Source: a bacterium (GTDB lineage Bacteria; Patescibacteriota; Saccharimonadia; Saccharimonadales; SZUA-47). From it: a stretch of 64,000 bases of DNA. Every line of letters starts with the position of its first letter. The stretch's first letter is position 1. The stretch lies in the NCBI GenBank assembly GCA_030427125.1, contig JAUHXF010000001.1:116102-180101 (forward strand), in the 5' to 3' direction. The notes under the pieces are model-generated. The model was not told the DNA's origin. It made no database searches and saw only the letters and a list, made by a program, of their open reading frames with translations. Positions 15,565 through 33,394 of the stretch are shown here, piece after piece. The translations under genes were made by a program, and so were the position numbers.

Positions 15565-15588
15565 AAAAAGAAAAAAGGAGAAAGAAAA

Positions 15589-16818
15589 ATGAGCAAAATG
15601 AAAAAAGTAAAAGCAGCCGTTCTCTCGACGGTAGTTGGTGCAATGTCGCCACTCGCAATGATTGCACCTGCGTCGGCAATTACAAATACTTGGACAGGCT
15701 TTGACGAGTCGAGCAATAATTGGAACAATTCAGACAACTGGTCATCTGGTTTCGGTCCAGGCAACGGTGACACATTAATTTTTCCTACATCAGCTCGATA
15801 TCAAGTTACGGAAAATGATATTGCGGGAACACTAGAGCTTGTAAGTATTATTTTCAACGGGGAATTTGACCCCGTTAACAACAGTTCAAAAGACTTCAGT
15901 ATTGAAGGCGGTTCAATAGAAATTTCAGACTCTATTCAAGCTAAAATGACTGGCAATGGCGGTAATCATACAATAGACTCTGATGTTGTGCTTGGTGATG
16001 ATGTTACTTTCAGTACCTCAGGAGTAGACACTTTAACAGTAGGTGGTGACGAAACGACACTTGATCTTGCGGGTAACGCACTTACATTGAGCGCTTCAGG
16101 TGGAACCATTACTATACAAGGTGTGATCGATGGTGAAGGAAGCGTAGAAGTCGCTAAAGGTAGAGTGAACATGCTTGCTGAGCCTGGCGATGACTATGAT
16201 GCGACAACAACAGTGTCTGGCGGTGAATATATCGTATCTGCAACAAGCCAGGGTAGTGTCACAATCGATGGTGGTGTACTTAAGGGAGAAAGTGGTGACA
16301 CAGGACTTCTAGGTACGGTAACACTCAATGACGGTTCAATTGAGCCGGGTATGAGCCCAGGCTGTCTCAATGTTTCAGAGTTAGTCCTCAATGGTGGTAC
16401 ATACGAAGTCGAACTTGAAGGCAATGCACAGTGTACAGAGTATGACTCTACAGCTGTAGCTGGCGATGTTGATCTCGGTGAAGGAGATGTGACGCTGGAT
16501 ATTCAAAGACTATCAAGCTTTGAGCCAGAAGTAGATGATGTGTTTGCAATCATTACTTACTCTGATGACTCCGATGTAAGTGGCTATTTTGAAGGTCTCG
16601 AAGATGGTGAATCTGTAACACTCGCTGAGTACACATATGAGATTAACTATGACGATGATGATGCTGTCACGTTAACGGTGCTTGGAACACCAGAAGCACC
16701 ATATACGGGTGTTGGGTCGCTGCTAAACAGTCCGTTGCTTACGCTAAGTGCAGCTGGAGCAGTGTTAGTTGTTCTTGGTGCAACACGGTACGCACAAGTG
16801 AAGAAGACGCAAAAGTAA
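15589..16818 (+). CDS. secreted PATR/beta-helix surface protein with C-terminal APxTG-type sorting signal (paralog)
   Basis: Signal peptide and NTWTGFDESSNNWNNSDNWSSG…P. C-terminus …EAPYTGVGS + TM + RYAQVKKTQK. The RBS-like AAAGGAG precedes it. Confidence 0.6.
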   Translation: MSKMKKVKAAVLSTVVGAMSPLAMIAPASAITNTWTGFDESSNNWNNSDNWSSGFGPGNGDTLIFPTSARYQVTENDIAGTLELVSIIFNGEFDPVNNSSKDFSIEGGSIEISDSIQAKMTGNGGNHTIDSDVVLGDDVTFSTSGVDTLTVGGDETTLDLAGNALTLSASGGTITIQGVIDGEGSVEVAKGRVNMLAEPGDDYDATTTVSGGEYIVSATSQGSVTIDGGVLKGESGDTGLLGTVTLNDGSIEPGMSPGCLNVSELVLNGGTYEVELEGNAQCTEYDSTAVAGDVDLGEGDVTLDIQRLSSFEPEVDDVFAIITYSDDSDVSGYFEGLEDGESVTLAEYTYEINYDDDDAVTLTVLGTPEAPYTGVGSLLNSPLLTLSAAGAVLVVLGATRYAQVKKTQK

Positions 16819-16890
16819 GTTAAAAAGTAAAACGGAATAACATCACACCCCGGGCGCAACTAAGGGGTGTGATGTTTCAAAAGAAAAAAC

Positions 16891-18006
16891 ATGGGTGCAC
16901 AATCACAATCAAACTCAAATCGACTTTCGCTGAATAGTTCAGTGTTTGCTGGTCGTGTAAAGAAGTTCGATACATATGAACCACGACCAGCTCAACAGCA
17001 GCGACCTATTCAGCGTACATCGATACAGCAGGTAGCTCAGAAAAAGATAGTTGCTCCACAGCCGCTCGCCATAGCTAAGCCAGTGGCTCAAATGAGGCCT
17101 GCTGTTTTGAAGAAGCCAGTGTTGAAGCAGCCCGCAGCAGTAGAAAAGCCTAGCCTATACAGAGCTATCCCTAAGCAGAATGTTGGTGATCAAGAACAGT
17201 CAATGCGTCCGACACATACACTTGCTATGCAGGCAGTTGGCCAATCTAACGCAAAGCAGAAATCAGTGCTTGCTGATCAGTTTGAAGAATCGCTTTATAT
17301 GAACGCTAATAAGCCAAAGCAGGAAAAATCTAAGTTGGTTACCGCGATGAACACGGTGGCAGTTATTGTGTTTATCTTTGCGAGTGCGGTTAGCGTGCAA
17401 ACTCTGTTGACTAATCGGCAGACCCAGGATGTACTCGCCGACAAAGCCGAGCAAGTTCAAACAGCAGATGCGCAGGGAGTTTCTGAAGGAACTGGTCGTG
17501 ATCCTGCTGAAGAGCCTGTGCCAGATAACGCTATTATTAACTACCAGGTAGCGCCAGAGTTGCCTAGATACCTAAGCATCCCAGACATCGGCGTATTTGC
17601 ACGTATTAAGCACACGGGTCGGGATGACAGCGGGGCAGTTGATGCGCCACGCAATATACATGACGTTAGTTGGTATACAGAAAGTGCTAAGCCAGGAAAT
17701 GCCATCGGTGCTTCGTTGCTTCTCGGGCATGTTCAAGGCTGGAGTGCGCCAGGAGTGTTTAAGGAAATTGACAAGCTGCAGCCCGGAGCTCGTTTCACCG
17801 TTGAAAAAGGTAGCGGAGAGACGATTACCTATGAAGTAACAAGGGGTCAAGAATACTCACTTGAAGAATTGAACATGGGCAAAATTCTAAGCGCTGAAGA
17901 GTCCGGAGAGCACGATATGAAGCTGATGACATGCGCTGGAGCGTTTGACGCATCGACAGAAAGCTATATGTCGCGCTATGTTGTCTATGCAAAAGTTGTT
18001 CGATAA
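16891..18006 (+). CDS. sortase (class E/F-like) with long Q/P/K-rich N-terminal cytoplasmic extension
   Basis: TM helix then a catalytic domain with LLLGHVQGW (His), KLMTCAG (the TLxTC Cys) and a downstream Arg. Located directly after two candidate substrates. Confidence 0.75.
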   Translation: MGAQSQSNSNRLSLNSSVFAGRVKKFDTYEPRPAQQQRPIQRTSIQQVAQKKIVAPQPLAIAKPVAQMRPAVLKKPVLKQPAAVEKPSLYRAIPKQNVGDQEQSMRPTHTLAMQAVGQSNAKQKSVLADQFEESLYMNANKPKQEKSKLVTAMNTVAVIVFIFASAVSVQTLLTNRQTQDVLADKAEQVQTADAQGVSEGTGRDPAEEPVPDNAIINYQVAPELPRYLSIPDIGVFARIKHTGRDDSGAVDAPRNIHDVSWYTESAKPGNAIGASLLLGHVQGWSAPGVFKEIDKLQPGARFTVEKGSGETITYEVTRGQEYSLEELNMGKILSAEESGEHDMKLMTCAGAFDASTESYMSRYVVYAKVVR

Positions 18007-19823: not shown

Positions 19824-22800
19824 GTGAGGTTTTTTCGGCGCAGCCACTATGTGGTTGTTGCTTTGTTTTTACTTGTGCAGTTTTTGCCAGCTGATCAATT
19901 ACGTACACTTCTGCCGAAAGCACATGCTGCACCTGGTGATGGTCATATGTTGTTGTTCTGGGATGGCGGAAGTGCGCCGAGTGGTTGGAGTTGCGTGTCT
20001 TGCAGCCCGGGTGATGATTTCTATCAAAGATTCATTCGAGGTAATGATGCCTATGGAGCTACTGGTGGTGCCGCAACGCATACACACACGGCTGATGGTT
20101 CGGTTGACGAGACAACCACGCCAATGCCGGCTCGATCGCGCAATACACCACCGAACGACATTCACGAAAATGATCATACACATACATTTAGTCCGACGAT
20201 TGGAACTGCTAGCAATCTCCCTGAATACAGACAGCTGCAAGTTATCAGACACGACACTGCAGGTGATCCTGCAACGCTACCGGCTGGTGCAATAGCAATA
20301 TTTGACGCCGCAGTGCCAACTGGCTGGACGAGGTATTCAGCGCAAGATGGTCGATATATACGTGGTGAAAACACTGTTGGCACAACGGGCGGTTCGAATA
20401 CGCATACCCATGCCATAACGGGCACAACCGGCACAGCTCAGGGTGCTGATCGTGAACGAAACATAAACGGTACACAAACAAATGTTGCTGATGGGGCACA
20501 TACGCATGATGCATCGGGGACTTCCGCGAGCACGAGCAACGAGCCACCGTATATTGAGGTCATTCTCGGCGAATTGGACGCTGGTGCTGCCCCGCCAAAT
20601 GACATGTATGCAATGTGGGATGATGACCCGACAACAGCGTGGTCTGTGAAGAGTGAGAGTGGTGGTGTCTTCCACCAGGCGTTCTTTAAAGGTGCGAGTT
20701 CATATGGTGCTACCGGCGGGAGTGAGTCGCACAGTCATGCAGATGTGAGTTATGAATCAGGTTTACCAAGTGCGACGACTACCTCACGAACAAACGGTAC
20801 GGTCCGCGCCGCAGACGATCAGCATACGCACACGATAAACGTCACGAATTTCTCCGACGTGAATCATCTGCCGCCGTATATCGACGTTATTATTGCCAAG
20901 AAACAAGCTCCAAGTACACTGGAGCAATCATCATACCGATGGTTTAGAAACCAAGATAGTACAGATGCTGGAACGTCGCTCGCTGCTGAGAACACCGCAG
21001 CAACTGCACCACCTCAGGGCAAAGAATTTCGTTTGCGCTTCACAATTGGTGTCAGCGATGTCGACATGGGGTTGAACGGAGAGACCATGAAGCTGCAGGT
21101 TGCGCAACGCGTAGGTGCGTGTGATACGAGTTTCATCGGCGAAACATACAGTGATGTATCAGATTCATCTGGTGTGATTCGTTTTGCTAATAATCCTACG
21201 CCAGATGACGGCGATTCGTTAACGACAATTGCTAATGATCCAACTGGCGGAGGCGGGACGGTTGTCGCGCAAAGCTATGAAGAGTCTGGCGGTTTTTCCA
21301 ATACAGAAGCAGCAATAGATATTGGTGAAGATGGATTGTGGGACGTGGCGTTGGTCGATGATTCAGCACCGGCTTCAACAGCGTATTGTTTCCGTGTGGT
21401 GCGTAGCTCTGGATCAAGCCTAGATTACTACAGCGAAATACCAGAAATCACCACTGATGACGGGCTTGGTCATATGCTGCTGTTTTGGGATGGAGTTAGT
21501 GTGCCGAGCGGCTGGAGCTGTGTGTCGTGCAACCCAGGTGATGATTTCTATCAACGCTTTCCACGCGGCGAGACTACCTACGGAGCAACTGGAGGTAGTG
21601 CTGCGCACTCGCACACCGCAGACGGAACAGTTGGGGCGCAATCAGCCTTATCAGGAAGAAGTAGTGCAGGCACTGGATTCATTCGGGCACACGATCACTC
21701 CATTACGCCGATCATTGGCAATGCTAGTAACTTGCCGGTGTATAGACAGCTGCAGGTAATTCGCTTTGACAGCAGTGGAACTCCGACGACAATTCCAGCT
21801 GGTGCAATAGCAATTTTTGACGCAGCTGTACCAACAGGCTGGACGAGGTATTCAGTGCAAGATGGTAATTACATTCGCGGTGAGAGCACTGTAGGATCAA
21901 CTGGTGGTAGCAACACTCATACCCATACGATTACTGGTACAACAAGCATAGGTACAGGGACTATTCGAGGTCAAAACACAAATAATACCCAAGGCCCCGC
22001 ACCAACTGATACACACACCCACACAATCTCTGATAATTCAGACTCTGTGAGTAACGAACCGCCGTACATCGAAACGATCTTGGGCTCAATAAACGCCAAT
22101 GGCTCTGCGCCATCAAACATGCTAGCTATGTGGGATGGAGTTATGCCTGGTACCTGGACATCGCAATCAGACGCCGTAGGCGCATTTAACCAGAACTTCA
22201 TGAAGCCTGCAGCAACCTATGGCGCGACTGGCGGAAGTGCGACGCACTCACATGGCACAACTATCACGACATCATCCGGACCAAGTGCAACGGCGACAAC
22301 TAGAACGGGTGGGACGAACCTAAGTTCAGCAACGCACACGCACCAAGTTACAATTGATAATTTCTCTGACGTGAATCACCTACCACCTTACATCGATGTC
22401 ATTATCGGAAAGCTAACAGGCACCAATACTGGGCCAAATATACCGACCGCTTTGGATCAAATTCGCGTAAGTGACAGTTCATCGGTGGCGGTTGGTGGGT
22501 TCACCAATAATGGACAAGTTGAATTCACGGCGCAAGCTACAGACACTGACAATCCAGACGATTTGCAATTGTGCGTCGAGGTGCTTCCTATCGGCAGTCC
22601 ATTCACGAATGTTGAGTTGCAATGCGGCACAGCGGCGACCTACAGTGGCTCAGCGGTTAGCGTGTCAGTTACTATTTCGGGACTCAGTGATGGTACAAGC
22701 TACCATTGGCAAGCGCGGATTAAGGACGGAGCGGGGGCGACATCTGGCTGGGTGAGTTTTGGTGCAAACCCAGAGGCAAATGCTGATTTCATTGATGACT

Positions 22801-23627
22801 CTACTGATCCGAGCGGAACGGTATTTGACGGCTCGACTACGGGATTTGATGCTGATTTCAACGATGGCTCACTTGATACTTTGGAGGCGAATTGGAACAT
22901 CACAGACGGCGGTTCAGGAATCTCTGAGTACGAATATGCTATCGGCACGAGCGCAGGCGGAACGGATATTGTTGCCTACACGAGCAACGGAACAACCGAT
23001 TCAGTAACCGCAGGGTCACTTACGCTAGAGACTTCACTGCCGTACTATTTCTCCATTCGTACAACTGACAATGCCGATAATCAGATTATAATAACTAGCG
23101 ATAGTCAGCTTGTCGCACCGACGCTTACATTTAGCACGAGCACATCAGGCGGTGTACAGTTTGATAATCTGAACGCAAATAATAACTACACAGACACGAA
23201 AACTACCGTGTTAACAACGTCAACAAATGCACGAAATGGCTACGCGGTGCGTGCCTATACAACTGGGCTCTTAGAGAATAGCTACTTCGATGTTATTAGC
23301 AACTTTACTGGCGGCACCTACGCGGCCCCAGATACATGGCAGAGTGGTGATGTTGGCTACGGCTATACGTCTAATGACACACAGGTGCAGGGATCTAATA
23401 TCTTCAATGCAGTAACGTGTCCAGGTGGTGGATCAGGAAGCTCATGTTACGCGCCGTTTAGTCAGACAGCTCCGGGCGACATAGTTGCGGACAACGAGTC
23501 AACGATTACCGGGACGCCTATTACGAGTGAGCAATTCATCATTACGCATCGCGTCACAACAGATGCAAATCAAGAAGCCGGGCAGTACCAGACAATAGTC
23601 ATATTCCAGGCCACAGCAAAGTATTAG
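19824..23627 (+). CDS. giant secreted surface protein: 8 phage tail-collar-like repeats (2 blocks of 4), beta-sandwich/FN3-like domains, shared C-terminal module
   Basis: Repeats fit the tail-collar pattern (GW.C…G..Y.R…G.TGG…H.H … NEPPYIEVILG). Blocks at nt 19941–20905 and 21468–22420 are ~80% identical in DNA. C-terminal module is …PTLTFSTSTSGG…GQYQTIVIFQATAKY. Confidence 0.7.
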   Translation: MRFFRRSHYVVVALFLLVQFLPADQLRTLLPKAHAAPGDGHMLLFWDGGSAPSGWSCVSCSPGDDFYQRFIRGNDAYGATGGAATHTHTADGSVDETTTPMPARSRNTPPNDIHENDHTHTFSPTIGTASNLPEYRQLQVIRHDTAGDPATLPAGAIAIFDAAVPTGWTRYSAQDGRYIRGENTVGTTGGSNTHTHAITGTTGTAQGADRERNINGTQTNVADGAHTHDASGTSASTSNEPPYIEVILGELDAGAAPPNDMYAMWDDDPTTAWSVKSESGGVFHQAFFKGASSYGATGGSESHSHADVSYESGLPSATTTSRTNGTVRAADDQHTHTINVTNFSDVNHLPPYIDVIIAKKQAPSTLEQSSYRWFRNQDSTDAGTSLAAENTAATAPPQGKEFRLRFTIGVSDVDMGLNGETMKLQVAQRVGACDTSFIGETYSDVSDSSGVIRFANNPTPDDGDSLTTIANDPTGGGGTVVAQSYEESGGFSNTEAAIDIGEDGLWDVALVDDSAPASTAYCFRVVRSSGSSLDYYSEIPEITTDDGLGHMLLFWDGVSVPSGWSCVSCNPGDDFYQRFPRGETTYGATGGSAAHSHTADGTVGAQSALSGRSSAGTGFIRAHDHSITPIIGNASNLPVYRQLQVIRFDSSGTPTTIPAGAIAIFDAAVPTGWTRYSVQDGNYIRGESTVGSTGGSNTHTHTITGTTSIGTGTIRGQNTNNTQGPAPTDTHTHTISDNSDSVSNEPPYIETILGSINANGSAPSNMLAMWDGVMPGTWTSQSDAVGAFNQNFMKPAATYGATGGSATHSHGTTITTSSGPSATATTRTGGTNLSSATHTHQVTIDNFSDVNHLPPYIDVIIGKLTGTNTGPNIPTALDQIRVSDSSSVAVGGFTNNGQVEFTAQATDTDNPDDLQLCVEVLPIGSPFTNVELQCGTAATYSGSAVSVSVTISGLSDGTSYHWQARIKDGAGATSGWVSFGANPEANADFIDDSTDPSGTVFDGSTTGFDADFNDGSLDTLEANWNITDGGSGISEYEYAIGTSAGGTDIVAYTSNGTTDSVTAGSLTLETSLPYYFSIRTTDNADNQIIITSDSQLVAPTLTFSTSTSGGVQFDNLNANNNYTDTKTTVLTTSTNARNGYAVRAYTTGLLENSYFDVISNFTGGTYAAPDTWQSGDVGYGYTSNDTQVQGSNIFNAVTCPGGGSGSSCYAPFSQTAPGDIVADNESTITGTPITSEQFIITHRVTTDANQEAGQYQTIVIFQATAKY

Positions 23628-23824
23628 TAACACCTTGTAAACCGGTAAGTAGGCTACCGGATGGTTTATGGGCGAATCTATTTGTAAATTGCTTGTGCTT
23701 ACCTCTGTTTTTATATAGAATAAGCATAAGTATCTCGCAAAGGTGACTTGAAATTAAAAATAGGGCGCAACTATTTCAGTCTAATCTTGTACGTGGTCGT
23801 TTTTTAATCACGGTACTGCTGTTT

Positions 23825-26800
23825 TTGGTGACTGAGTTTACTTTTTTGCTTAGTTTTATCCAGCCGGCTGCAGCTGCCGGAGAAATATTCCGTACGACTA
23901 CCTATGAGATAGAGGCAGGAACTTTTACGAGTACAGTCTATTCACTGACACTCAATAACAACCTAGAGAACAACTACTTCACGATGATAAGCGGTCCATC
24001 GGAAGCTACCGGATCTCGAGCACCAAACGCTGATCGGGTACGGGTGACTGCAGATCCACATAGTAATTTTGCTAGCACTACAGCCTCAAACCAACTGGAG
24101 CTTACACGCAATAATGCGACCAATGACTGGATAGGAGCCCTTACAGTAGTTGAGTGTCTCAGTAACTGTGCAACAAAAGGGTTTGTTCTGTCAGAAATTC
24201 TTGAGACAGATTTAGCGGCAGGTACTGCCAATACACTACAAACAGTGAACGATACCTTAAGTGCAAGCCACACTGCTCAAACAGTACCGTTTGGCGGTAG
24301 GTTCGGTGGCGGCATGGAAAGTGCTGGTACGGATTCAAATGCATATGCGACAACTGTTGGTATTAAAATAACTAAAACTAGCACTAATCAAATTACGTAT
24401 GAACGTTATGGCGCTGAGAGCCGTGCTCCAGCCGCGGGGACTGTGACAACGTATATCACCGAATGGGGAAGTGAATGGACTGTGCAAGATGTGAGCGTGT
24501 CAGGCACGAATGCAGGTTCGGGTATTGATGCAACGAATGAATACGAGACAACAAGCATCACATCAGTGGTTCGCGATAATACGTTTGTCTGGGGTGGTGG
24601 CTACTCCTATGATGATGGGCTTGGTGATGGTGCACTTGGTCAAGTAATCACTCTTGGTGATGGTGTGTCTCAGAATGCAACTGAAACGCTGGTTGCAGTT
24701 GGTGCTGAAGGTGGGCAGGTATCACCAGGTAGAGATTTTCAAGTCTATGTTTTAGAGCATGAGGGTTTAGCAGTTGACTATCGTTTCCGAGCACGAGGTG
24801 ACCAAGGCAGTAGTACTGGCTATCAAGAGTTAACTCAAACAGTTGATGCACCAATTGGATTAGAAACAAGAGATAATACTGCCACTGATGTGAGGTATAC
24901 GGAAGGCTTTCGTGTGCCATTGTTCTACAACACCTCAGGAGGGACGGGTCAAGCATATTCACGAACCGGCGCCTGGGGCCTTAGGCACACTGATGTAACC
25001 GAGATCACTTATTGGCGTGCTTATGCGGGTCAGCCAATAACTGGGTGGTTTCAGTCAATTGATTTCGCAGACATAAAATTCACCAATGTGATTACTCGGC
25101 AAGAGGCTTTTCGCTGGCGAGACGACTCAACAGATCTCAATACCGACGGTGGCTGGTTGGCATCAGAAGATACCAATCTCGGTGATCAAGCAAAGAATAC
25201 TAATTTGCGCCTACGCATTAAGTCATCAAATTTTGGTACAACACCTGAAACAGCCGCTAAGACTTACGAATTGCAGTTTAGCGAGAAAACATCTGCGTCT
25301 TGCAATGCTCTTGGTTCTTGGGTTGGTATCTCTGATAGCACTACGGACGCCTTTGCCCTGTATGATTCACCAAACATCGATCCTGATGGAGAGGTCACGA
25401 CACTAGGTTTGCTGTCAAACGGAGATGGCTTCACGTATGTCAACGGAGAAGGTCGTGAACTTGCAGATACGACAAACTCTATTGGACCTATAGCAAATAG
25501 CGCCTACACAGAAATCGAGTATGCGTTACGTCCAACTGATGAAGCAATCACGGGCAAAACCTATTGTTTTAGACTGTTCGACACGACTGCTAGCATGCCA
25601 CTTGATGGATATACAGTATATCCAGAACTTACTATTGAATCTGTTGTTATCGATGCTGTTTCTGGTCTAGGCGAAGCTGGCACATTTAGCTCAGCCGTCG
25701 ATGGAGGCTGGACGACAATTAACTTCTTGGGCACATACATGAACCCTGTCGTTGTCGGGACAACAAATACGCAGAACGGAGAGGATGCGTTAGTGTTTGA
25801 AGCACGTAATGTAACCGGTACGAGTGCTGAAATGCGCGTCTGTGAGTCAGAAGGAGCTGCCGCAAACGGCTGTGATACACACGCATCAGAGACAGTTGGG
25901 TATATGGTGATTGATGCAGCCGTGGCCGCAACAACGGACGGTATTGAAGCTGGGACATTCTCTGCTGATGGCGATTTTGACACCGATGCAGTAACGACAT
26001 CTTATCCGACTGCTTTTTCTTCGGCGCCATACGTATTTGCCAATGTTAATACGGTGAATTCATCTGATGAGCCGGTCGAAGTGATGGTCAGAGGTGTTAC
26101 AGCATCAACTTTTACAGCGGGACTATGTCATCAGTTAGTTGGTCCAGATTTAAATAGCTGTGACACAACACATGGATCAGAGACAGTTGGATGGGTGGCA
26201 ATTGAACCAGGCAATGAACCTTTTTCGGAGCAGTTTGACACGGGTGATGTGTCAATTGGTAACAGCACTTGGACGCCTATTACATTCAGTCCTTCTTTTG
26301 CTGCGCCTCCAGTCGTGATCGTCGAGTCACAGACAGACAACGGAGGTGAGGACGCGGTGCTTGATGAAGCTCGATTGGTAACAACAACAGGTGCTGATAT
26401 CCGTTTCTGTGAAATGGAAAATTTTGATACTTGCGATAGCCATAATGCTGATGATATTGCGTGGTTTGCTATCGAGCCGGGTCAATTCTCAGAAGCACTC
26501 GCACTTGATCAGGACGGCTATCGGTTCTATGAAAATGCTGATGCACTGACTCCAGCCGTTTCGTTAGATGCAGAAAATACTGAGATAGCAAATGTTGATA
26601 GCGGCGATGTGCTACGGCTGCGCTTGGCAGTACAGTCGGGTTCGCAAGCTACCGTTGTCGATGCCTTTGAGCCTAAACTCCAGTATGGCGTCGGTACCAC
26701 GTGCTCTGCTGTAGGCACATGGAATGATGTTGGTGGAATTGGCTCAGGTACAATCTGGCGTGGATATAATAATGCAACACCGTCCGATGCAGCGACGCTT

Positions 26801-28885
26801 CCGAGCTCACTATTAGATGGAGGTGCTAACACGCTGCAAACTTATGAAGAGGCGAATGATGCCTTGTCAAATCCAAACCTCATCCCGGCTAATAGTCGTG
26901 GTGAATGGGATTGGGTTATACAAAATAATGGCGCTGCAAACTTTACCAGTTATTGTTTCCGTATGGTGACTGTTGCTGGCGATCCAATTAATTATGCACT
27001 ATACCCACGATTAACAACGTCAACTGGTGTGGTCAACTCGGCACCGAACGACCCTATGAATCTTACGCAAGAACGAACAACAGGTGTGAATATTGCAGTT
27101 GGTGAGCTGATCAATACCGGCTCAGTAGTATTCAAGGCAGACATAAGTGATCAGAATGCTAATGACATTATCGAGCTTTGTATAGAAGTCAAAGAAGTCG
27201 GCCAAGCTTTTACTGATACTGAAGACAGCTGCAGTTCAAGCTATGTATATAACGGCTCCATGGTCGCAGCGGAACACACTATATCGGGTTATGAACACAA
27301 TACAACATACCACTGGCAAGCTCGCGTTAAAGACGCTGCTGGTTTGTATTCTGCCTGGGCTAGTTTTGGGGGTAATAGCGAAAATGCGCCAGACTTCGAT
27401 GTTGATACGGTTGACCCGGAGGTAATCGTCTATGATGGTATGACTCTAGGAGCAGACATTGAATTTAACGACGGGTCACTTAATACGCTCAGTGCAGTAT
27501 GGGAACTGCAAGACGAAGACGTTCCGACTGATTTTAGCGGCTTGGCACTATGGCTCGATGGTGCAGATGTCAACGCAGATGGTTCAACAGTTTCAGATGG
27601 AGCTGCAGTAAGCACATGGTTTGATAAATCAGGTAACGGGAATGATATAGCCGGTACTGGCGCCTCGACTTATAGCTCAGCAAACCAGGCGCCCGGATAC
27701 AGTGGCACGGCACAGCCATTCGATGATACTTACGATCGATCTGGTGGAAACGTAAACTCACAAACGTCATTCAGCGTTGTGACTGGTGATAATACAGATA
27801 CAAATGCCGTATGGTATGAGACTACGACACCTCGTGTTGCGCCAGGAGAACAAGGGCTACTGGGTGGCGGCACAACTCTTACAAACAATAACTTGTATGG
27901 AAGCTTTATTAGCAGTCAGCAACTCGTAACTTTGGAATATCTATCGTCGGGTGCTTCAACAAGCTGGCTTGATCGTAGCCAAGAGTTCTCATTCTCCGAG
28001 ACGCAGATTTTCGCTGATTCACAACGGTTGGTTATTGGTGATGACACAACTGGTGGAAACCCGCTGCAGTCGAATGAATATGTTCATGAATTAATTGTCT
28101 ATAATCAAGATTTGACGGCTGCGGAACGAAAAGCTGTATGGAACTACCTCGAGTGTAAATGGGGTCTCAAAGATTGTACTGTTACATATGAATACTCAAT
28201 TGGTACCTCTCCAGACGGGACTGATCTTGTCGATTGGACTTCTACAGGGACAACAACAACATTTACCGCCAGCACTCTTAATCTAGAAACTTCAGATATA
28301 TATTACGTCAATATTAGAGCAACAGATCCTGCTGGTAATCAGAAAGTCTTTAACTCTGATGGTCAGCAGGTAGCACCATCGCTTACATTCTCCACGTCGA
28401 CATCCAGTGGTGTAGTTTTTGATAATCTCAATGCCGGTAATAGTTTTACCGACACAGAGTCGACCATACTCACAACGAGTACAAATGCTCGAAATGGCTA
28501 TGCAGTTCGCTCATATATAACCGGTTCATTAGAGAATGTACTTCTAGATACGATAGGCGAGTTTGACGGTGGTACTTATGCTGCTCCTGACACCTGGCAA
28601 GGTGGGGATGAAGGCTATGGTTATACGTCTAGCGATACACTAGTTGATGGTGTAAATCGATTTAATGCAGCAACATGTCCGGGTGGTGGTAGTGGTGGTC
28701 CGTGTTTCGCGCCATTTAGTTTATCTGCCCCTGGCGACATAGTGGCAGACAATCTTGGTCCAGTAGTCGGAACACCAATCTCCAATGAGCAATTTACTAT
28801 TACGCATCGAGTCACAACAAATGCCTCGCAGTCTTATGGCACGTATCAGACTTCAGTGATATTTCAAGCAACAGCTGTATACTAA
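23825..28885 (+). CDS. giant secreted lectin-domain protein (3 H-type-lectin-like domains, LamG-like domain, FN3-like domains, shared C-terminal module)
   Basis: The start is probably TTG or GTG. There are three ~100-aa repeats matching the H-type lectin pattern, around nt 25640–26480 (a representative one is ITFSPSFAAPPVVIV…TTTGADIRFC…IAWFAIEPG). A LamG_3-like segment (LALWLDGADVNADGS…DKSGNGND) lies around nt 27530–28180. The C-terminus …GTYQTSVIFQATAVY is homologous to that of 19824..23627. Confidence 0.7.
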   Translation: MVTEFTFLLSFIQPAAAAGEIFRTTTYEIEAGTFTSTVYSLTLNNNLENNYFTMISGPSEATGSRAPNADRVRVTADPHSNFASTTASNQLELTRNNATNDWIGALTVVECLSNCATKGFVLSEILETDLAAGTANTLQTVNDTLSASHTAQTVPFGGRFGGGMESAGTDSNAYATTVGIKITKTSTNQITYERYGAESRAPAAGTVTTYITEWGSEWTVQDVSVSGTNAGSGIDATNEYETTSITSVVRDNTFVWGGGYSYDDGLGDGALGQVITLGDGVSQNATETLVAVGAEGGQVSPGRDFQVYVLEHEGLAVDYRFRARGDQGSSTGYQELTQTVDAPIGLETRDNTATDVRYTEGFRVPLFYNTSGGTGQAYSRTGAWGLRHTDVTEITYWRAYAGQPITGWFQSIDFADIKFTNVITRQEAFRWRDDSTDLNTDGGWLASEDTNLGDQAKNTNLRLRIKSSNFGTTPETAAKTYELQFSEKTSASCNALGSWVGISDSTTDAFALYDSPNIDPDGEVTTLGLLSNGDGFTYVNGEGRELADTTNSIGPIANSAYTEIEYALRPTDEAITGKTYCFRLFDTTASMPLDGYTVYPELTIESVVIDAVSGLGEAGTFSSAVDGGWTTINFLGTYMNPVVVGTTNTQNGEDALVFEARNVTGTSAEMRVCESEGAAANGCDTHASETVGYMVIDAAVAATTDGIEAGTFSADGDFDTDAVTTSYPTAFSSAPYVFANVNTVNSSDEPVEVMVRGVTASTFTAGLCHQLVGPDLNSCDTTHGSETVGWVAIEPGNEPFSEQFDTGDVSIGNSTWTPITFSPSFAAPPVVIVESQTDNGGEDAVLDEARLVTTTGADIRFCEMENFDTCDSHNADDIAWFAIEPGQFSEALALDQDGYRFYENADALTPAVSLDAENTEIANVDSGDVLRLRLAVQSGSQATVVDAFEPKLQYGVGTTCSAVGTWNDVGGIGSGTIWRGYNNATPSDAATLPSSLLDGGANTLQTYEEANDALSNPNLIPANSRGEWDWVIQNNGAANFTSYCFRMVTVAGDPINYALYPRLTTSTGVVNSAPNDPMNLTQERTTGVNIAVGELINTGSVVFKADISDQNANDIIELCIEVKEVGQAFTDTEDSCSSSYVYNGSMVAAEHTISGYEHNTTYHWQARVKDAAGLYSAWASFGGNSENAPDFDVDTVDPEVIVYDGMTLGADIEFNDGSLNTLSAVWELQDEDVPTDFSGLALWLDGADVNADGSTVSDGAAVSTWFDKSGNGNDIAGTGASTYSSANQAPGYSGTAQPFDDTYDRSGGNVNSQTSFSVVTGDNTDTNAVWYETTTPRVAPGEQGLLGGGTTLTNNNLYGSFISSQQLVTLEYLSSGASTSWLDRSQEFSFSETQIFADSQRLVIGDDTTGGNPLQSNEYVHELIVYNQDLTAAERKAVWNYLECKWGLKDCTVTYEYSIGTSPDGTDLVDWTSTGTTTTFTASTLNLETSDIYYVNIRATDPAGNQKVFNSDGQQVAPSLTFSTSTSSGVVFDNLNAGNSFTDTESTILTTSTNARNGYAVRSYITGSLENVLLDTIGEFDGGTYAAPDTWQGGDEGYGYTSSDTLVDGVNRFNAATCPGGGSGGPCFAPFSLSAPGDIVADNLGPVVGTPISNEQFTITHRVTTNASQSYGTYQTSVIFQATAVY

Positions 28886-29800
28886 TTGGCAATGAAGTAC
28901 GCGTTATTTGGTTTTGGTGTATTGCTGAGTTTCGTATGTATCGCAAAAACTGGACTCGCACAGCAAGAGACACAACTAGTAGTGACGCCAGCTATTATTG
29001 ATGCGCCAGCAGTCGCCGGTGAATCTACAAAACGTACGATACAGATAAGTAATAACAATGATTATGCACTGCCAATTAGTGTTGAAGTGCAATCAGCTGT
29101 TATCGATGGTGAACCTCTTGAGGGAGTGAGTAACGACCGGTATGATGTGAGTAATTGGGTCTCCTTTGACAAAAAAACCTATATTTTTGAATCTGGAGAG
29201 ACGCGGCAAATACCATTTACTATTACGCCTCCGTTTACTGCTTCAGCTGGCGGACATTATGCACAGATTAGTATTCGAGGGTTAACCCTCGAATCTTCAT
29301 CAGGGCAGCAAGGACTTGTATTCCCTGAGATTGGTGTGCCGTTACTCGTAACGGTGCCGGGTGAAATCGTTGAGGATGCTCGTGTTCAGGATGTGTCGAT
29401 ATTTCCTCGATTCGTAACACCAAACAAACCAATTGATATCGAAATACCCGTTGAAAATATTGGAACGGTACATAATCTTGTTCGAGTGAAGATGGTCTTT
29501 GTGCAGGGTGATTCGGTTGTTGATGAACTAGAGTTACCGCCAGGAATTATTCTCCCTGGCACGAGGAAGCTCTTCCGTGGTGTGTGGCAGCCAGAACAAT
29601 ATGGGCAGTTTGATGCCTATGTAGAATTGGCGTATGGGTCTAATCGCACTACAACACGATCGCAAGCAGAACAGGTGCTTGTCATGCCTCCTGTCAGCTC
29701 ACTTATCTTACTTGGAATTTTTGTGTGGCTAGGTACTTATCTATGGCCGCGTCGGCAGAATATTGTAGGTGCTATTAAAACAATATTTACAGCTCAATAA
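28886..29800 (+). CDS. signal-peptide protein with C-terminal TM anchor (DUF916/CscA-like architecture)
   Basis: Signal peptide, a ~250-aa beta-rich ectodomain, and a C-terminal TM (LILLGIFVWLGTYLW) plus basic tail. Paralogous to 31014..32003. Confidence 0.5.
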   Translation: MAMKYALFGFGVLLSFVCIAKTGLAQQETQLVVTPAIIDAPAVAGESTKRTIQISNNNDYALPISVEVQSAVIDGEPLEGVSNDRYDVSNWVSFDKKTYIFESGETRQIPFTITPPFTASAGGHYAQISIRGLTLESSSGQQGLVFPEIGVPLLVTVPGEIVEDARVQDVSIFPRFVTPNKPIDIEIPVENIGTVHNLVRVKMVFVQGDSVVDELELPPGIILPGTRKLFRGVWQPEQYGQFDAYVELAYGSNRTTTRSQAEQVLVMPPVSSLILLGIFVWLGTYLWPRRQNIVGAIKTIFTAQ

Positions 29801-29863
29801 AGCTTGCGCTTTACTCTTGATTTCGGTACAATTTCAAGGAATTCTACAAAGAGAGGGTATTAC

Positions 29864-30922
29864 ATGACACAAACAAAGATTTTTCGACTATCGACGCTTT
29901 TGGCGATAGTTGGTTTATTAATGGCACTTTTGCTGCCAGCAGTTCCTGCGAGCGCTTTAACAAATAGTTCATTGCTATTGTCAGATCCGCGTACTGGCGA
30001 GACAAGTGACTACACACTAACGACTAGCGGTCTAACAACTGGAACTACGATCAACTGTATACAGCTGGATATCGGTACCGCATCTGATGGTACAGGCGAT
30101 GTTGGGCTTGATCTTTCAAGTGTCGATGTAACGACTGAAACAATTACATCTGGTGGTGCATGGGCAGATGCGAGCGTTGACGGTACAACTGATCAATTGC
30201 GATACACATCAGCTGGTGGAGCAACACCAAATGCCTCAGGTTCAATTACTTGGGATGATGTCGTCAATGGATCCACTGAAGGTGCAACATACTACGGCGT
30301 ATTTGAGACATTTAGCAATACCGACTGTTCAACCGGTGGTCCTGTCGACTCGGTCACTGTTGCATTCACCTACAAAGACGGAGAATTGGTGCAACTTACA
30401 ATTGATCCAACACTAACATTTACTTGTTCAGATGTCGCATCTGGACTGCCGGTAAACGGTGTGAACACAACAGTTGCTTCGACTGCGAGCGGTATTAATC
30501 ATGGCAATTCAGTAACATTTGGTGCCAAAGGTATATCAGCACATGATTTGAACGTGACCACAAATGCACCTGGCGGCTACACTGTGTACATCCGCCACAC
30601 AGGACAGCTTACAAATGGTTCTGACAACATTGCTAATCACACCGGTACAAATGCAGCGCCTACAGCTTTCCCTGCTGCAGGTACTGAAGCCTGGGGCTAT
30701 ACAACTGAGGATAATACTCTAGGAGGTGGTGGAGCGACACGGTTTACTGCTGCAAATGGATACGCCGGCTTTACGACTACTAACGAGCCAGTCATGGACA
30801 ACACAGGTGCAGCTCCAAGTGGTGACACGGTTCGTGTTGGTCACCAGGTTGGTGTAGCGAATACTACACCGTCAGGTACATACCAGACGACCATTGTGTA
30901 CACAGTTGCTTCTGTGTACTAA
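29864..30922 (+). CDS. secreted protein carrying the shared C-terminal module (small CscB/WxL-like analogue?)
   Basis: Start at the internal ATG preceded by GAGAGGG. Signal peptide. C-terminal …PTLTFTCSD…GTYQTTIVYTVASVY is homologous to the C-termini of both giant proteins. Confidence 0.55.
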   Translation: MTQTKIFRLSTLLAIVGLLMALLLPAVPASALTNSSLLLSDPRTGETSDYTLTTSGLTTGTTINCIQLDIGTASDGTGDVGLDLSSVDVTTETITSGGAWADASVDGTTDQLRYTSAGGATPNASGSITWDDVVNGSTEGATYYGVFETFSNTDCSTGGPVDSVTVAFTYKDGELVQLTIDPTLTFTCSDVASGLPVNGVNTTVASTASGINHGNSVTFGAKGISAHDLNVTTNAPGGYTVYIRHTGQLTNGSDNIANHTGTNAAPTAFPAAGTEAWGYTTEDNTLGGGGATRFTAANGYAGFTTTNEPVMDNTGAAPSGDTVRVGHQVGVANTTPSGTYQTTIVYTVASVY

Positions 30923-31013: not shown

Positions 31014-32003
31014 ATGGGGTTCACACACAGACACATTGCCAGGTGGGCAAGCGTCGCTTTAATTGCACTAGTTAGTATTTTTGCTGTTTTCACTGTCTCG
31101 TCCAGTGCACAAGAACCAGCTGAGACTATTTCACTTGGTATTTCACCGCAAATTCTTGATGTGACGGCTAATCCTGGAGAGACACTTGAGAATACATTCC
31201 GATTAACGAATGCTTCTCCAGCGTCAGTCGATATCCAAGCAACACCAAAGAACTTTACACCTCGTGGGGAGGAAGGCGCCGTTGATTTAACCGTCGATGA
31301 CACTAGTTTCTCCTTAGCAGACTGGGTTAGTGTGTCGCCTGAGCGAACAGTAATTGAGCCTGGTCAAACAACTGATTTTGCTGTTACGATTGTGGTGCCA
31401 GATAACGCTGAGCCTGGTAGCCATTTTGGCTCAGTGGTTTTTCAGACAATTCCACCAGAAGATGCTACCGCAGACGCCTTAGTGAGCCAGGAAATAGCTC
31501 CGGTAATACTTGTAAAAATAGCTGGAAACACGACCGAGACAGCCGAGATAGAAGAACTCACCACTGATCAGAATAGCTACGGTAGTAACCCAACAATTCA
31601 GTTAATTTCTCGCATAAAGAACACCGGAAATGTTCACTTCAAACCGGTGGGTAAGATTACTATCAAGAATATGTGGGGAAACGAGATTGCTGAATTAGAG
31701 CTGGATCGAAGAAATGTGCTGCCAGATTCTATTCGGCAAATAACAACTGATTGGCAGCCAGAAGGGTTTCAATTAGGCAGATACACCGCAACTTTAACTC
31801 TTGTGTATGGAGAGAATGATGAAATACGTGTCGAAGAAACGAGTTTCACGATTTTCCCTTGGGAGATAATATTACCAATTGTAGCTGGAGCTGTAATAGT
31901 GAGTTTTGTAGCCATACGTTATCGAAAGCGCTTTGCACTAGCTGCAAAAGTACTCAGCGGTAAACAAGATACTAATTCAAACTCAAAAGGCACAAAAGAG
32001 TAA
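31014..32003 (+). CDS. signal-peptide protein with C-terminal TM anchor (paralog of 28886..29800)
   Basis: Same architecture: signal peptide, beta-rich ectodomain, and a C-terminal TM (ILPIVAGAVIVSFVAI) plus RYRKR tail. Confidence 0.5.
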   Translation: MGFTHRHIARWASVALIALVSIFAVFTVSSSAQEPAETISLGISPQILDVTANPGETLENTFRLTNASPASVDIQATPKNFTPRGEEGAVDLTVDDTSFSLADWVSVSPERTVIEPGQTTDFAVTIVVPDNAEPGSHFGSVVFQTIPPEDATADALVSQEIAPVILVKIAGNTTETAEIEELTTDQNSYGSNPTIQLISRIKNTGNVHFKPVGKITIKNMWGNEIAELELDRRNVLPDSIRQITTDWQPEGFQLGRYTATLTLVYGENDEIRVEETSFTIFPWEIILPIVAGAVIVSFVAIRYRKRFALAAKVLSGKQDTNSNSKGTKE

Positions 32004-32008
32004 GTAGC

Positions 32009-33394
32009 GTGCATAGAATCACACAACTAATGGTGGTAGGGTTGTTTGTAGGTCTATTTTCACTAGCTATAGCAAATAACGGCGCTGCCATCTCGCGAAC
32101 GGAAGACATAGAGTTAACAATCCCTGATACCGTGTTGGAAATTAGTGGCTATGCAGCTCCAGGCGCGCTCGTAACAATTCAGGAAGGTAGTTCTACGCTA
32201 GGCACAGTCCTGGCAAACGCGGAAGGAGCTTATTCAACAGTACTTACTTCGCAAGACGCAGGTTTGCGCTCTATTAAGACATATTTTACTGATGCAGAGG
32301 GTATACGCTCTCAGACAAGCACAAGGAATATTAGTATTCAACCACAGCGAGTTACCTCGTTTGAAACATATTTAAGCCCAACAATTATCCGGCGAACACC
32401 TACGCAAGTTCAGAGCGGCAGTATCGTACAGATTGTTGGTTATACAGTTGCTGATGCACGCGTGTCATTGTCATTCGGCGTCGTTGGAGATGAACAGCAG
32501 GTCATTGCGAACTCAGCAGGATATTATGAATTTTTATTAGACACTAAAATTTTAGATGATGGAAAGTACACTGTTTCAACATCAAGTAAAAAAACAGGAT
32601 TGACAGATAGCAGTGAGCAGTCTAAATCTGTTTCTTTTCGAGTTGTTAGCAAAGAAAAGTCAGAGGAAGGTGCCCCTGACATAATCGTCCGTCCTAATCA
32701 ATTACCTCCCCCTATTCCACAGTCACCAGATGACGGATCTGTCATAGTCGGCGACAGTGTATTAATAACTGGTGAGTCAGTGCCTTATGCTCAAATTGTA
32801 ATTTACGAAAATGGCAAGGTTATTGGCTCAGTACTTTCGAATGGACAGGGTAAATGGGAATTCAACTATACCGCTACATCAAGCCCCATAGTATTAACAT
32901 TTGAAGCGTGTCGGGAGGGGGTCTGTAGTGTTCTATCGCAGTCTTTATCTCTGTCGTTTCCAGCATTGGTAAGCACTCAGAATCCATGTAGCAAGCAGGT
33001 TTTTGAGCTGGAGTCTTATCGATTTTGGGGTGTACTGCCAAACGAGGAGGTGATGCTAGATGTATTGTTAACAAATGGTGACGGGGTGTTATTTGTAGAT
33101 TGGGGTGACGGTACTACTGAAGAACGGTTTGATCATGATGCGGATAGACCAACGTCCTACGAACATGTTTATAGCACAGGCCAGCATAATGGCTCTATCA
33201 GATTTGAACAAGGGGAGTGTAATATAGCACGATACTTTAGTGTAGATGCTCGTGGCCATAGTGGCATTAACACAAATTTTTACCTTATGGCATTGCTGAT
33301 TCTGGCCATCTTACCGTTTAGTTATTGGTCATATATCGAAGGTAAGGTTCTAATGCAAAAAGAAGTAAAAAAAGCGACAAAGAGCAACATATAG
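32009..33394 (+). CDS. Ig-like (Big) repeat surface protein with C-terminal TM anchor
   Basis: Signal peptide, repeated ~90-aa beta-sandwich-like units and a C-terminal hydrophobic helix. Confidence 0.45.
   Translation: MHRITQLMVVGLFVGLFSLAIANNGAAISRTEDIELTIPDTVLEISGYAAPGALVTIQEGSSTLGTVLANAEGAYSTVLTSQDAGLRSIKTYFTDAEGIRSQTSTRNISIQPQRVTSFETYLSPTIIRRTPTQVQSGSIVQIVGYTVADARVSLSFGVVGDEQQVIANSAGYYEFLLDTKILDDGKYTVSTSSKKTGLTDSSEQSKSVSFRVVSKEKSEEGAPDIIVRPNQLPPPIPQSPDDGSVIVGDSVLITGESVPYAQIVIYENGKVIGSVLSNGQGKWEFNYTATSSPIVLTFEACREGVCSVLSQSLSLSFPALVSTQNPCSKQVFELESYRFWGVLPNEEVMLDVLLTNGDGVLFVDWGDGTTEERFDHDADRPTSYEHVYSTGQHNGSIRFEQGECNIARYFSVDARGHSGINTNFYLMALLILAILPFSYWSYIEGKVLMQKEVKKATKSNI

Follow-up and report, generated by a model that had tools for sequence, protein, structure and literature searches.

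The stretch of DNA analysed here (the window; 64,000 nucleotides of contig JAUHXF010000001.1) comes from a bacterium of the candidate phyla radiation (CPR), a member of the Saccharibacteria, and holds an operon of six genes lying on the same strand with short gaps between them. Their products are labelled, in gene order, A, B, D, C, E and F (Table 1), and a tRNA-Pro gene follows F, the last gene of the operon. Three of these proteins, the giants A and B and the small protein C, end in a shared C-terminal module, and the subject of this work is that module, together with the partner proteins encoded next to it and the kind of surface system that they may form.

Table 1. Proteins and modules of the operon, with positions counted along the window (aa, amino acids)
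Feature	Positions	Strand	Description
Protein A	19824..23627	+	1267 aa; giant pilin-module protein; open reading frame (ORF) and translation
Module of A	23079..23627	+	linker strand QLVAPTLTFS (23106-23135) and Pam-pilin-type C-terminal domain
Protein B	23825..28885	+	1686 aa from the first canonical start; giant pilin-module protein with H-type lectin domain; ORF
Module of B	28337..28885	+	linker QQVAPSLTFS (28364-28393) and C-terminal domain; 71% identity to the module of A
Protein D	28886..29800	+	304 aa; signal peptide, two immunoglobulin (Ig)-like domains, C-terminal transmembrane (TM) helix; membrane-anchored WxLIP/PamC-D-type putative chaperone or dock
Protein C	29864..30922	+	352 aa; small, probably major, pilin
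Linker, candidate donor strand of C	30380..30424	+	GELVQLTIDPTLTFT
C-terminal pilin domain of C	30425..30922	+	homologous to the modules of A and B
Protein E	31014..32003	+	329 aa; membrane-anchored WxLIP/PamC-D-type putative chaperone; adjoins the small pilin
Protein F	32009..33394	+	461 aa; signal peptide, N-terminal strand, Ig-like domains, C-terminal TM helix
Mature N-terminal strand of F	32105..32146	+	DIELTIPDTVLEIS; resembles the pilin linker LT[IV]DPTLTFT

The sequence-only reading of this stretch had proposed three proteins with homologous C-terminal modules, and this is borne out. When A (23079-23624), B (28337-28882) and C (29864-30919) are aligned with MAFFT, the modules of A and B are 71% identical over their last 182 residues and those of A and C 36%, each of the two giants being about 35% identical to residues 173-352 of C, and 54 columns are invariant in the three. 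As seen by BLASTP over the ORFs of the window and of 28 comparison loci, the module of A finds that of B with E = 6e-74, the C-terminal half of C finds the module of B at about 2e-6, and the modules of A and B find C at 8e-5 and 5e-6, respectively (quoted overall as 1e-4 to 2e-6). Moreover, a profile search in 1.84 billion proteins returned 1875 cluster representatives at E ≤ 1e-3, of which 1015 lie at E ≤ 1e-10. Judged by these comparisons, the similarity of the modules is far beyond chance.

Regarding its extent, the module had been described as about 150 residues long, which holds for the domain itself, the whole module with its linker strand reaching 170-182 residues; it had also been said to make up most of C after the signal peptide, when it occupies only the C-terminal half of that protein. 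The listed motifs are present in the forms P[TS]LTF[ST], TNA..GY, G[YW]GYT, TH.V/GHQV and G.YQT.[IV].[FY], except that APGD.V, together with a Cys-x9-Cys loop, is limited to A and B. The module stops at most two residues from the C-terminus in all 139 representatives examined, whose carriers are either proteins of about 340-380 residues or giants; 77 of the 139 exceed 600 residues and the longest has 3291.

The nearest described system is that of Candidatus Mycosynbacter amalyticus (bioRxiv 10.64898/2026.03.03.709456), whose filaments, resolved by cryo-electron microscopy (PDB 25PZ and 25QA, from the supplement), consist of the pilins PamA and PamB polymerised by donor-strand exchange. As described in the same preprint, the pam operon also encodes PamC and PamD, PapD/FimC-like chaperones with C-terminal TM helices; PamR, an RbmA-like, TM-anchored protein with an extra N-terminal strand; and PamT, a tip pilin consisting of the C-terminal domain (CTD) only; a conserved neighbour of these operons is a "tail fibre-like protein". 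How the pili engage the host, and host recognition as such, are left unexplained there.

No Pfam model matches the module, either in A, B and C or in 25 members of its family. The match was found in NCBIfam (release 20), with model NF058581.1, "CPR_Pam_pilin_C, Pam pilus system pilin subunit". Residues 23-182 of the module of A align with positions 3-148 of this 148-column profile (20.5 bits, E = 3.9e-4), the module of B aligns end to end (15.4 bits, E = 0.015), and alignments are obtained with 20 of the 25 diverse family members, orthologues of C reaching 1e-6 to 2e-10 and the best of them, in locus L023, scoring 40.9 bits (E = 2e-10). The model begins directly past the PTLTF motif, which fits PTLTF being a separate linker, that is, the strand described as donated in the preprint. 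As these alignments span the full length of the profile with scores under its cut-off, the module family is, on the profile evidence, a divergent branch of the CPR_Pam_pilin_C family.

The AlphaFold2 (AF2) model of the module alone (predicted local distance difference test (pLDDT) 88.6, predicted template-modelling score (pTM) 0.84) folds as an Ig-like domain of 150 residues. When this model was compared with the Protein Data Bank (PDB) by Foldseek, about half of the 50 best matches, and most of the top ten, were subunits of donor-strand-exchange fibres, namely CsuE, CsuA/B, TasA, CfaE, FimA/FimI, CS20, SafA, Caf1 and PapH. The linker is kept in A, in B and across 140 diverse representatives as G..V.P.L.F, and in the family of C it is among the most conserved stretches, with G173, L178, L184 and F186 invariant in 37 sequences. 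In the AF2 model of C (pLDDT 84.5), an N-terminal sandwich is followed by a low-confidence hinge at residues 176-178, a strand at 184-189 (PTLTFT) and the C-terminal domain. The N-terminal part, residues 30-170, is a separate β-sandwich without counterpart in A or B, and the full-length two-domain model gave generic tandem-Ig matches only (TM-score about 0.2).

The two anchored-protein paralogs noticed beside the module proteins are confirmed as such, since D and E are 26% identical (E = 5e-19) and both combine a signal peptide, two Ig-like domains and a C-terminal TM helix; in E, the signal peptide is visible in the sequence and the helix is followed by a basic tail. With Pfam, D gives a weak match to PapD_N (E = 0.0056) and 12.2 bits with WxLIP_PGBD, and E gives 19.0 bits with WxLIP_PGBD (E = 0.0014) and a match to WxLIP_HBD at E = 0.19, so that both remain under the WxLIP_PGBD gathering score of 27.3 bits. 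In the family to which they belong, 22 of 30 members match WxLIP_PGBD (DUF916, PF06030), and one of them, L022:13435-14385, passes the cut-off with 32.2 bits. As a reference, 29 Firmicutes loci were collected by scanning metagenomes for the WxLIP motif NQIDKxxxYFDLK, giving 57 distinct WxL proteins and 25 WxLIPs. Against these WxLIPs, the D/E family aligns by hhalign over 228 columns and both domains (Prob 97.8%, E = 6.8e-13), with the NQIDKxxxYFDLK motif itself falling on a gap in the CPR family. In addition, the best matches of the D/E profile in the PDB are to EfmWxLIP1 (9i25_C and 9i1y_A, E = 5e-6), and neither PapD nor FimC was found in that search. Thus, the partners are of the DUF916 type, as had been proposed, and profile comparison makes a solid case for the homology of D and E with WxLIP (DUF916 PF06030, DUF3324 PF11797 and a TM helix).

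The PDB entries 9i25 (chains A and C) and 9i1y are solved structures named "WxL domain surface protein" and "EfmWxLIP1", apparently including a complex of WxL with WxLIP, and no paper on them was found in the literature searched. An AF2 prediction of a WxLIP strand that completes the WxL sandwich has been published (PMC10599100).

Protein F lies directly after E in the CPR loci, a position that is conserved. It matches Big_6 (E = 5.9e-12) and, in NCBIfam, CPR_pilus_PamR (E = 6.2e-5). Its mature N-terminus has the strand pattern ELT[IV]P[DE]T.L.[IV]SGYAAP, conserved in most of the 19 F orthologues fetched. By analogy with PamR, F is a candidate terminator or membrane anchor.

Concerning the giants, A consists of a signal peptide, two internal repeats of about 510 residues, FN3-like stalk domains and the module. 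The repeats (residues 40-880; window 19824-23078) can be followed by the landmarks GHMLLFWDG at residues 40/549, IAIFDAAVP at 157/662, AMWD at 263/768 and PPYI at 241/350/746/854, and each copy contains three units that by eye resemble phage tail-collar domains (HTH...N[LE]PPYI); no Pfam model matches these units. Weak FN3/PhoD_N matches stand directly before the module of A. Protein B carries an H_lectin domain (27.2 bits; Pfam cut-off 24) and a weak match to the C-terminal domain of tail-fibre gp53. Due to this H-lectin, tail-fibre-like and tail-collar-like content, both giants have the look of receptor-binding proteins. In B, the first canonical start, a TTG at 23825 (window 23747-23830), leaves only MVTEFTFLLSFIQPAAAA, a truncated signal peptide, while the in-frame sequence upstream (IKNRAQLFQSNLVRGRFLITVLLFLV...) and the orthologues indicate a full one; the true start is therefore probably upstream of 23825, at a non-canonical codon such as the ATT at 23753.

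The similarity of the giants extends about 220 residues upstream of the module (A, about 22430-23078; B, about 27035-28336), over two FN3-like stalk segments of 46% and 52% identity, and in B this stretch is broken by an insert of about 210 residues that is LamG-like by eye (LALWLDG...SGNGND...KWGL). The two modules of the window also resemble each other more closely than the module of A resembles those of A-type orthologues from other genomes, with which it shares 55-64% amino acid identity. A recent gene conversion between them was considered and rejected, as their DNA identity is only 65%; at such a DNA identity, the likeness suggests co-adaptation to the same chaperone and pilin.

The 28 comparison loci were taken from GTDB species genomes of Saccharibacteria and of other CPR groups (among them Woesebacteria, Parcubacteria and Berkelbacteria), M. 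amalyticus not being among them. The order giant-D-C-E-F is kept in at least 19 of the 28, including a metagenome-assembled genome (MAG) of Woesebacteria. Most genomes have one giant, either of A type or of B type, and the window has both in tandem. Orthologues of A type take the same operon position in about 8 of the 28 loci (e.g., L002, L007, L011 and L015), and those of B type are found in L001, L005, L006, L012, L013 and L028. A D-type gene is present in every fetched locus with a giant module protein (at least 19), and the approximately nine loci that lack a giant have E-type genes only, which suggests that D is dedicated to the giants. The homologues of C (n = 311) are all unnamed or "hypothetical" proteins of Candidatus Saccharibacteria or Saccharimonadales. 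What this analysis observed directly are homologies, domain layout, synteny and co-occurrence.

Taken together, the operon is probably a divergent Pam-type pilus operon with giant adhesin subunits. As expected for an operon of this type, membrane-anchored D and E are encoded close to a PamR-like, TM-anchored F with an N-terminal strand. The exchange of strands, the order of the subunits and the roles of D, E and F given below are drawn from the M. amalyticus preprint and from the precedent of chaperone-usher pili. The shared module would be the fibre-joining unit, composed of the linker β-strand (P[TS]LTF) and an Ig-like domain of about 150 residues that lacks one strand and so presents an open groove. 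After export of the subunits by Sec, the membrane-anchored D and E would cap this groove with a strand of their own, and the cap would then be swapped for the linker strand of the next subunit by donor-strand exchange, with neither usher nor sortase involved. C would be the small repeating pilin that forms the shaft, and A, with its tail-fibre-collar-like repeats, and B, with its H-type lectin, would be giant host-binding subunits mounted by their modules, most simply at the tip, as FimH, PapG and CsuE are. Meanwhile, D would probably be the dedicated chaperone of A and B, and F may end and anchor the fibre, its linker-like N-terminal strand entering the last subunit and its C-terminal helix sitting in the membrane.

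Several points weigh against this interpretation. No score with CPR_Pam_pilin_C reaches the curated cut-off of 55 bits, the maximum being the 40.9 bits given above, and the C of the window itself has no match to this model, whereas its 57%-identical orthologue does. Similarly, the score of F with the PamR model is 22 bits against a cut-off of 300. The Foldseek matches of the module are weak, with E values of 6e-3 to 0.2 and TM-scores of 0.3-0.5, and AF2 models of monomers cannot show whether a strand is donated in trans or bound in cis. The likeness to PamA and PamB of M. amalyticus rests on the NCBIfam profile and the description in the preprint. A and B retain a linker motif that a pure tip subunit would not need. 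Finally, filaments formed by donor-strand exchange are known only for PamA and PamB of M. amalyticus, from a preprint that is the sole experimental basis.

A permanent docking of the module on its partners, in which a strand of D or E fills the groove for good and A, B and C are individually displayed as a cell-surface complex with no fibre, is the strongest alternative, though an unlikely one. It would agree with D and E being true WxLIP homologues with a TM anchor, with the published model in which WxLIP binds and stabilises WxL on the surface and completes its sandwich, with what is apparently a solved WxL:WxLIP complex (PDB 9i25), and with the presence of D beside the giants in every fetched locus that has one, as for a stoichiometric partner. 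However, the homologous Pam pilins form filaments that detach from cells (bioRxiv 10.64898/2026.03.03.709456), and C would have no obvious function as a lone displayed protein. Docking is also less favoured because the donor-like linker, highly conserved in the small pilin and kept in A and B, is mimicked by the N-terminus of F, which is hard to understand if only D and E fill the groove.

According to the sequence-only reading, the module is a divergent WxL domain, which would attach A, B and C to the cell wall by binding peptidoglycan non-covalently; this is improbable as a mechanism. The part of that proposal concerning the cluster stands, as a small and a large protein with the same C-terminal domain are encoded together with membrane-anchored partners, in the WxL-type architecture, and the partners are real WxLIP homologues. 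The proposed match of the module to WxL fares otherwise. With PF13731, A, B and C give nothing at E ≤ 1, let alone at the gathering score of 25 bits, and none of 25 family members matches at E ≤ 10, when WxL positive controls reach up to 244 bits (E down to 1e-72). The profile-profile comparison that had been proposed was run with hhalign against small- and large-WxL profiles, and gave alignments that are always co-linear, with GY.V on the first GW.L motif, at P values of 0.02-0.2 and Prob of about 1-2%. The score against large WxL is 21.3 over 130 columns end to end, slightly above the 16-19 of real β-rich negative controls; in a column-shuffled null (9.9 ± 1.8, maximum 17.7), 0 of 100 shuffles reached it. 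The WxL profiles were shallow, as homologue searches yielded 10 proteins for the module of A and 14 for the large-WxL profile, mostly fragments, and the global mode of hhalign produced only meaningless end-overlap alignments.

Some of the evidence does point towards a distant relationship. The hidden Markov model (HMM) of the CPR module scores 13.9 bits on the C-terminus of a large WxL protein (E = 1e-4 in 57 sequences), the highest of 1197 shuffled or reversed sequences being at 8.8 bits, and among 475 ORFs of the Firmicutes loci, 61 of which encode WxL proteins, its 12 best matches are all WxL proteins. The motifs run in the same order, P.L.F/..F[GD] with L.L..VP..I.FG, TNA..GY.V with D.RG...GW.L, and AG.Y.TT.[IV][YF] with Y.[GT]T[LI].W.L. 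The two Trp-x-Leu motifs themselves are lacking in the module, where the corresponding positions read GY[AT]V and [IV][FY][QT][AV]. A genuine large WxL protein within a WxL cluster, seen at L045:2372-4945(-) and L052:3483-6056(-), has NFSV for W.L in motif 1, with Phe for Trp, so that Trp is not invariant even within the WxL family. On the other hand, no PDB chain is found with the module profile, not even 9i25_A, the solved chain of large-type WxL, which is also absent from the 50 best Foldseek matches of the module model; peptidoglycan binding by WxL itself has been inferred largely from docking; and a more specific family, Pam_pilin_C, matches the module. Consequently, as the profiles indicate, it is through the chaperones that this cluster and the WxL clusters are homologous, and a homology of the module with WxL, through a distant common ancestry, is plausible but unproven. 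The WxL idea was right about the relatives of the cluster and probably wrong about the mechanism, which would be polymerisation or docking through strand complementation and not cell-wall binding.

A C-terminal sorting or secretion tag (sortase signal, type IX secretion system (T9SS)-type CTD or "choice-of-anchor"), removed or serving export only, is very improbable in spite of the module always standing at the extreme C-terminus of very diverse passengers and of a class F sortase gene 1.8 kb upstream, since A, B and C end in ...ATAKY, ...ATAVY and ...ASVY as soon as the last β-strand is complete, an LPXTG-like motif, a hydrophobic helix and a basic tail all being absent (which counts against peptidoglycan anchoring as well, and on which a sortase signal or T9SS-like tag was rejected), the likely sortase substrates are two upstream proteins with PDTG/PYTG, a TM helix and a basic tail, and a module that is predicted to fold as an Ig-like domain and forms half of the small, highly conserved C is too much for a mere tag.

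Outside the operon, the upstream region 13741-18006 encodes two secreted proteins of 607 and 409 residues with a region resembling autotransporter-associated β-strand repeats. Their C-terminal parts read ...APDTGVGS and ...APYTGVGS, after which each continues with a hydrophobic helix and a basic tail. The class F sortase-like gene (16891-18006; NCBIfam class_F_sortase, 105.6 bits, cut-off 166) is directly downstream of these two genes, and the three together have the appearance of a cassette of sortase and substrates, distinct from the pilus operon and marked by an unusual P[DY]TG motif. Regarding regulation, promoter and terminator scans across the operon gave sites no commoner than in shuffled sequence, and the Rfam scan gave tRNAs only. 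A short GC-rich hairpin at 23642-23660 lies 15 nucleotides past the stop of A, inside the 197-nucleotide gap between A and B, and read-through between the two giant genes could be attenuated there.

Among the comparison loci, two call for a separate description. L022:9854-16679, from a Saccharimonadia MAG, has another operon layout, with three tandem C-like pilin genes followed by the E-type chaperone that passes the Pfam WxLIP_PGBD threshold, then a LamG-containing protein of 457 residues (Laminin_G_3, E = 3e-32) with the module at its end, for which NCBIfam gives "TafC family fimbrial protein" at E = 4e-15 and far under the cut-off, and then a second chaperone-like gene. L019 (DATIHE010000037.1), whose label is "Candidatus Nanoarchaeia archaeon", encodes a C-like pilin (40% identity) together with the first part of an E-type gene, and is probably a mis-binned or mislabelled CPR contig.

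[quoted passage not shown] Besides these similarities, there are differences. All scores of the window are under the NCBIfam cut-offs; a single small pilin gene stands in place of PamA/PamB/PamE, and a PamT with the CTD only is missing; in C a single Cys pair is conserved, when two or three are reported for Pam; and the giants (1267 and 1686 residues, with relatives of up to 3291) carry the linker and the pilin domain, a combination undescribed in the preprint. The kind of system is thus already known from the 2026 preprint and the NCBIfam models. What appears to be new is a divergent and widespread subfamily, its giant lectin-like or tail-fibre-like proteins with a pilin module and a dedicated chaperone, and chaperones that are demonstrably WxLIP homologues.

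The chaperone-usher pili (Fim, Pap, CFA/I and the archaic Csu, with the tips FimH, PapG, CfaE and CsuE) provide the best structural matches of the module model and are also among those of the full-length C model, and the proposed logic is theirs: an adhesin region placed before an open-groove pilin domain, a chaperone of two Ig domains and a terminator subunit. However, sequence similarity is not detectable, WxLIP and not PapD/FimC is what the D/E profile finds in the PDB, D and E are membrane-anchored, and the donor strand would be an internal linker and not an N-terminal extension. A match to an usher family in Pfam was not obtained for any of the six operon proteins; CPR bacteria are generally regarded as lacking an outer membrane. 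The TasA/TapA fibres of Bacillus subtilis are likewise usher-less donor-strand-exchange fibres, of a Gram-positive-type envelope, and TasA is the third-best Foldseek match (8aur_A, E = 0.015), but they show no sequence similarity, depend on the accessory proteins TapA and SipW, and have neither a membrane-anchored two-domain chaperone nor giant subunits. From sortase-assembled Gram-positive pili, the system differs by the lack of an LPXTG-type sorting signal in A, B and C.

The WxL/Csc clusters of Lactobacillales, Enterococcus and Listeria (PF13731, PF06030 and PF11797; 9i25 and 9i1y) also have a small and a large protein with a common C-terminal domain whose motifs are co-linear with those of the module; a partner homologous to D/E, with a signal peptide, two Ig domains and a TM helix, one strand of which is predicted to complete the sandwich; and an extra anchor protein (in Firmicutes the EF2685-type LPXTG protein, in the window F) that opens with a short strand motif. 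Meanwhile, the module is under every Pfam WxL threshold, and the Trp of WxL is Tyr or Phe in it; the NQIDKxxxYFDLK motif of WxLIP is missing from D and E; the extra anchor protein has a TM helix and not LPXTG; the small pilin C has an additional N-terminal domain and an internal candidate donor strand, whereas small WxL proteins have the strand at their mature N-terminus, before a Pro/Asp-rich spacer; and WxL clusters have been described as peptidoglycan-bound complexes, not fibres.

In the Firmicutes loci (L029-L057), every small WxL protein consists of a signal peptide, a strand SNG.[IV].F..N, a Pro/Asp-rich spacer of 25-40 residues and the WxL core. The small LPXTG proteins of these clusters open with a similar strand (AGITFSNS, EIGLTFNSD and AGVTFTGG), followed by a low-complexity spacer and the sorting signal, and NF053819, the NCBIfam model of the EF2685/EF0750 LPXTG protein, finds a small WxL protein, of which it covers the first 62 residues (E = 2e-6). 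Donor strands would be expected to show such a layout. Examples of loci with small WxL or EF2685/CscD-type LPXTG proteins are L029:7714-8451(-), L032:3606-3959(-), L035:2805-3197(+) and L041:751-1158(+).

It is possible, and is put forward here tentatively, that WxL/Csc clusters and Pam operons are one ancient usher-less family of fibres or complexes, based on donor-strand complementation under a membrane-anchored chaperone. This proposal draws on the solid homology of the chaperones, the same cluster logic and the co-linear domain motifs with their weak statistics, as well as from the NF053819-type N-terminal region common to small WxL and LPXTG proteins and the WxLIP strand predicted by AF2 to fill the WxL gap. 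The WxL domain may then be an open-groove, pilin-type domain that is not primarily wall-binding, with WxLIP as its chaperone; the N-terminal strand of small WxL proteins (SNG.[IV].F..N and Pro/Asp spacer) may be the donor strand; the EF2685/CscD-type LPXTG protein may be a wall-anchored terminator, the counterpart of the TM-anchored F/PamR; and large WxL proteins may be adhesin subunits, as may the CPR giants A and B. In the literature searched, including the Pam preprint, no paper links WxL to donor-strand exchange.

CPR bacteria, including Saccharibacteria, live attached to host bacteria, and how hosts are recognised is largely unknown. Lectin-like or tail-fibre-like giants of up to about 3300 residues, with an assembly module and a probably dedicated chaperone and encoded directly upstream of the pilin gene (at least 19 loci), are candidate determinants of host specificity, which would be expected to be variable, swappable and mountable on a common fibre. 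The mechanism of the WxL/Csc clusters has been unclear since 2006, and the solid homology between chaperones and WxLIP ties the CPR system to these clusters, which belong to enterococci, listeriae and lactobacilli. Should the homology extend to the domains, WxL proteins would be reinterpreted as donor-strand-complemented subunits.

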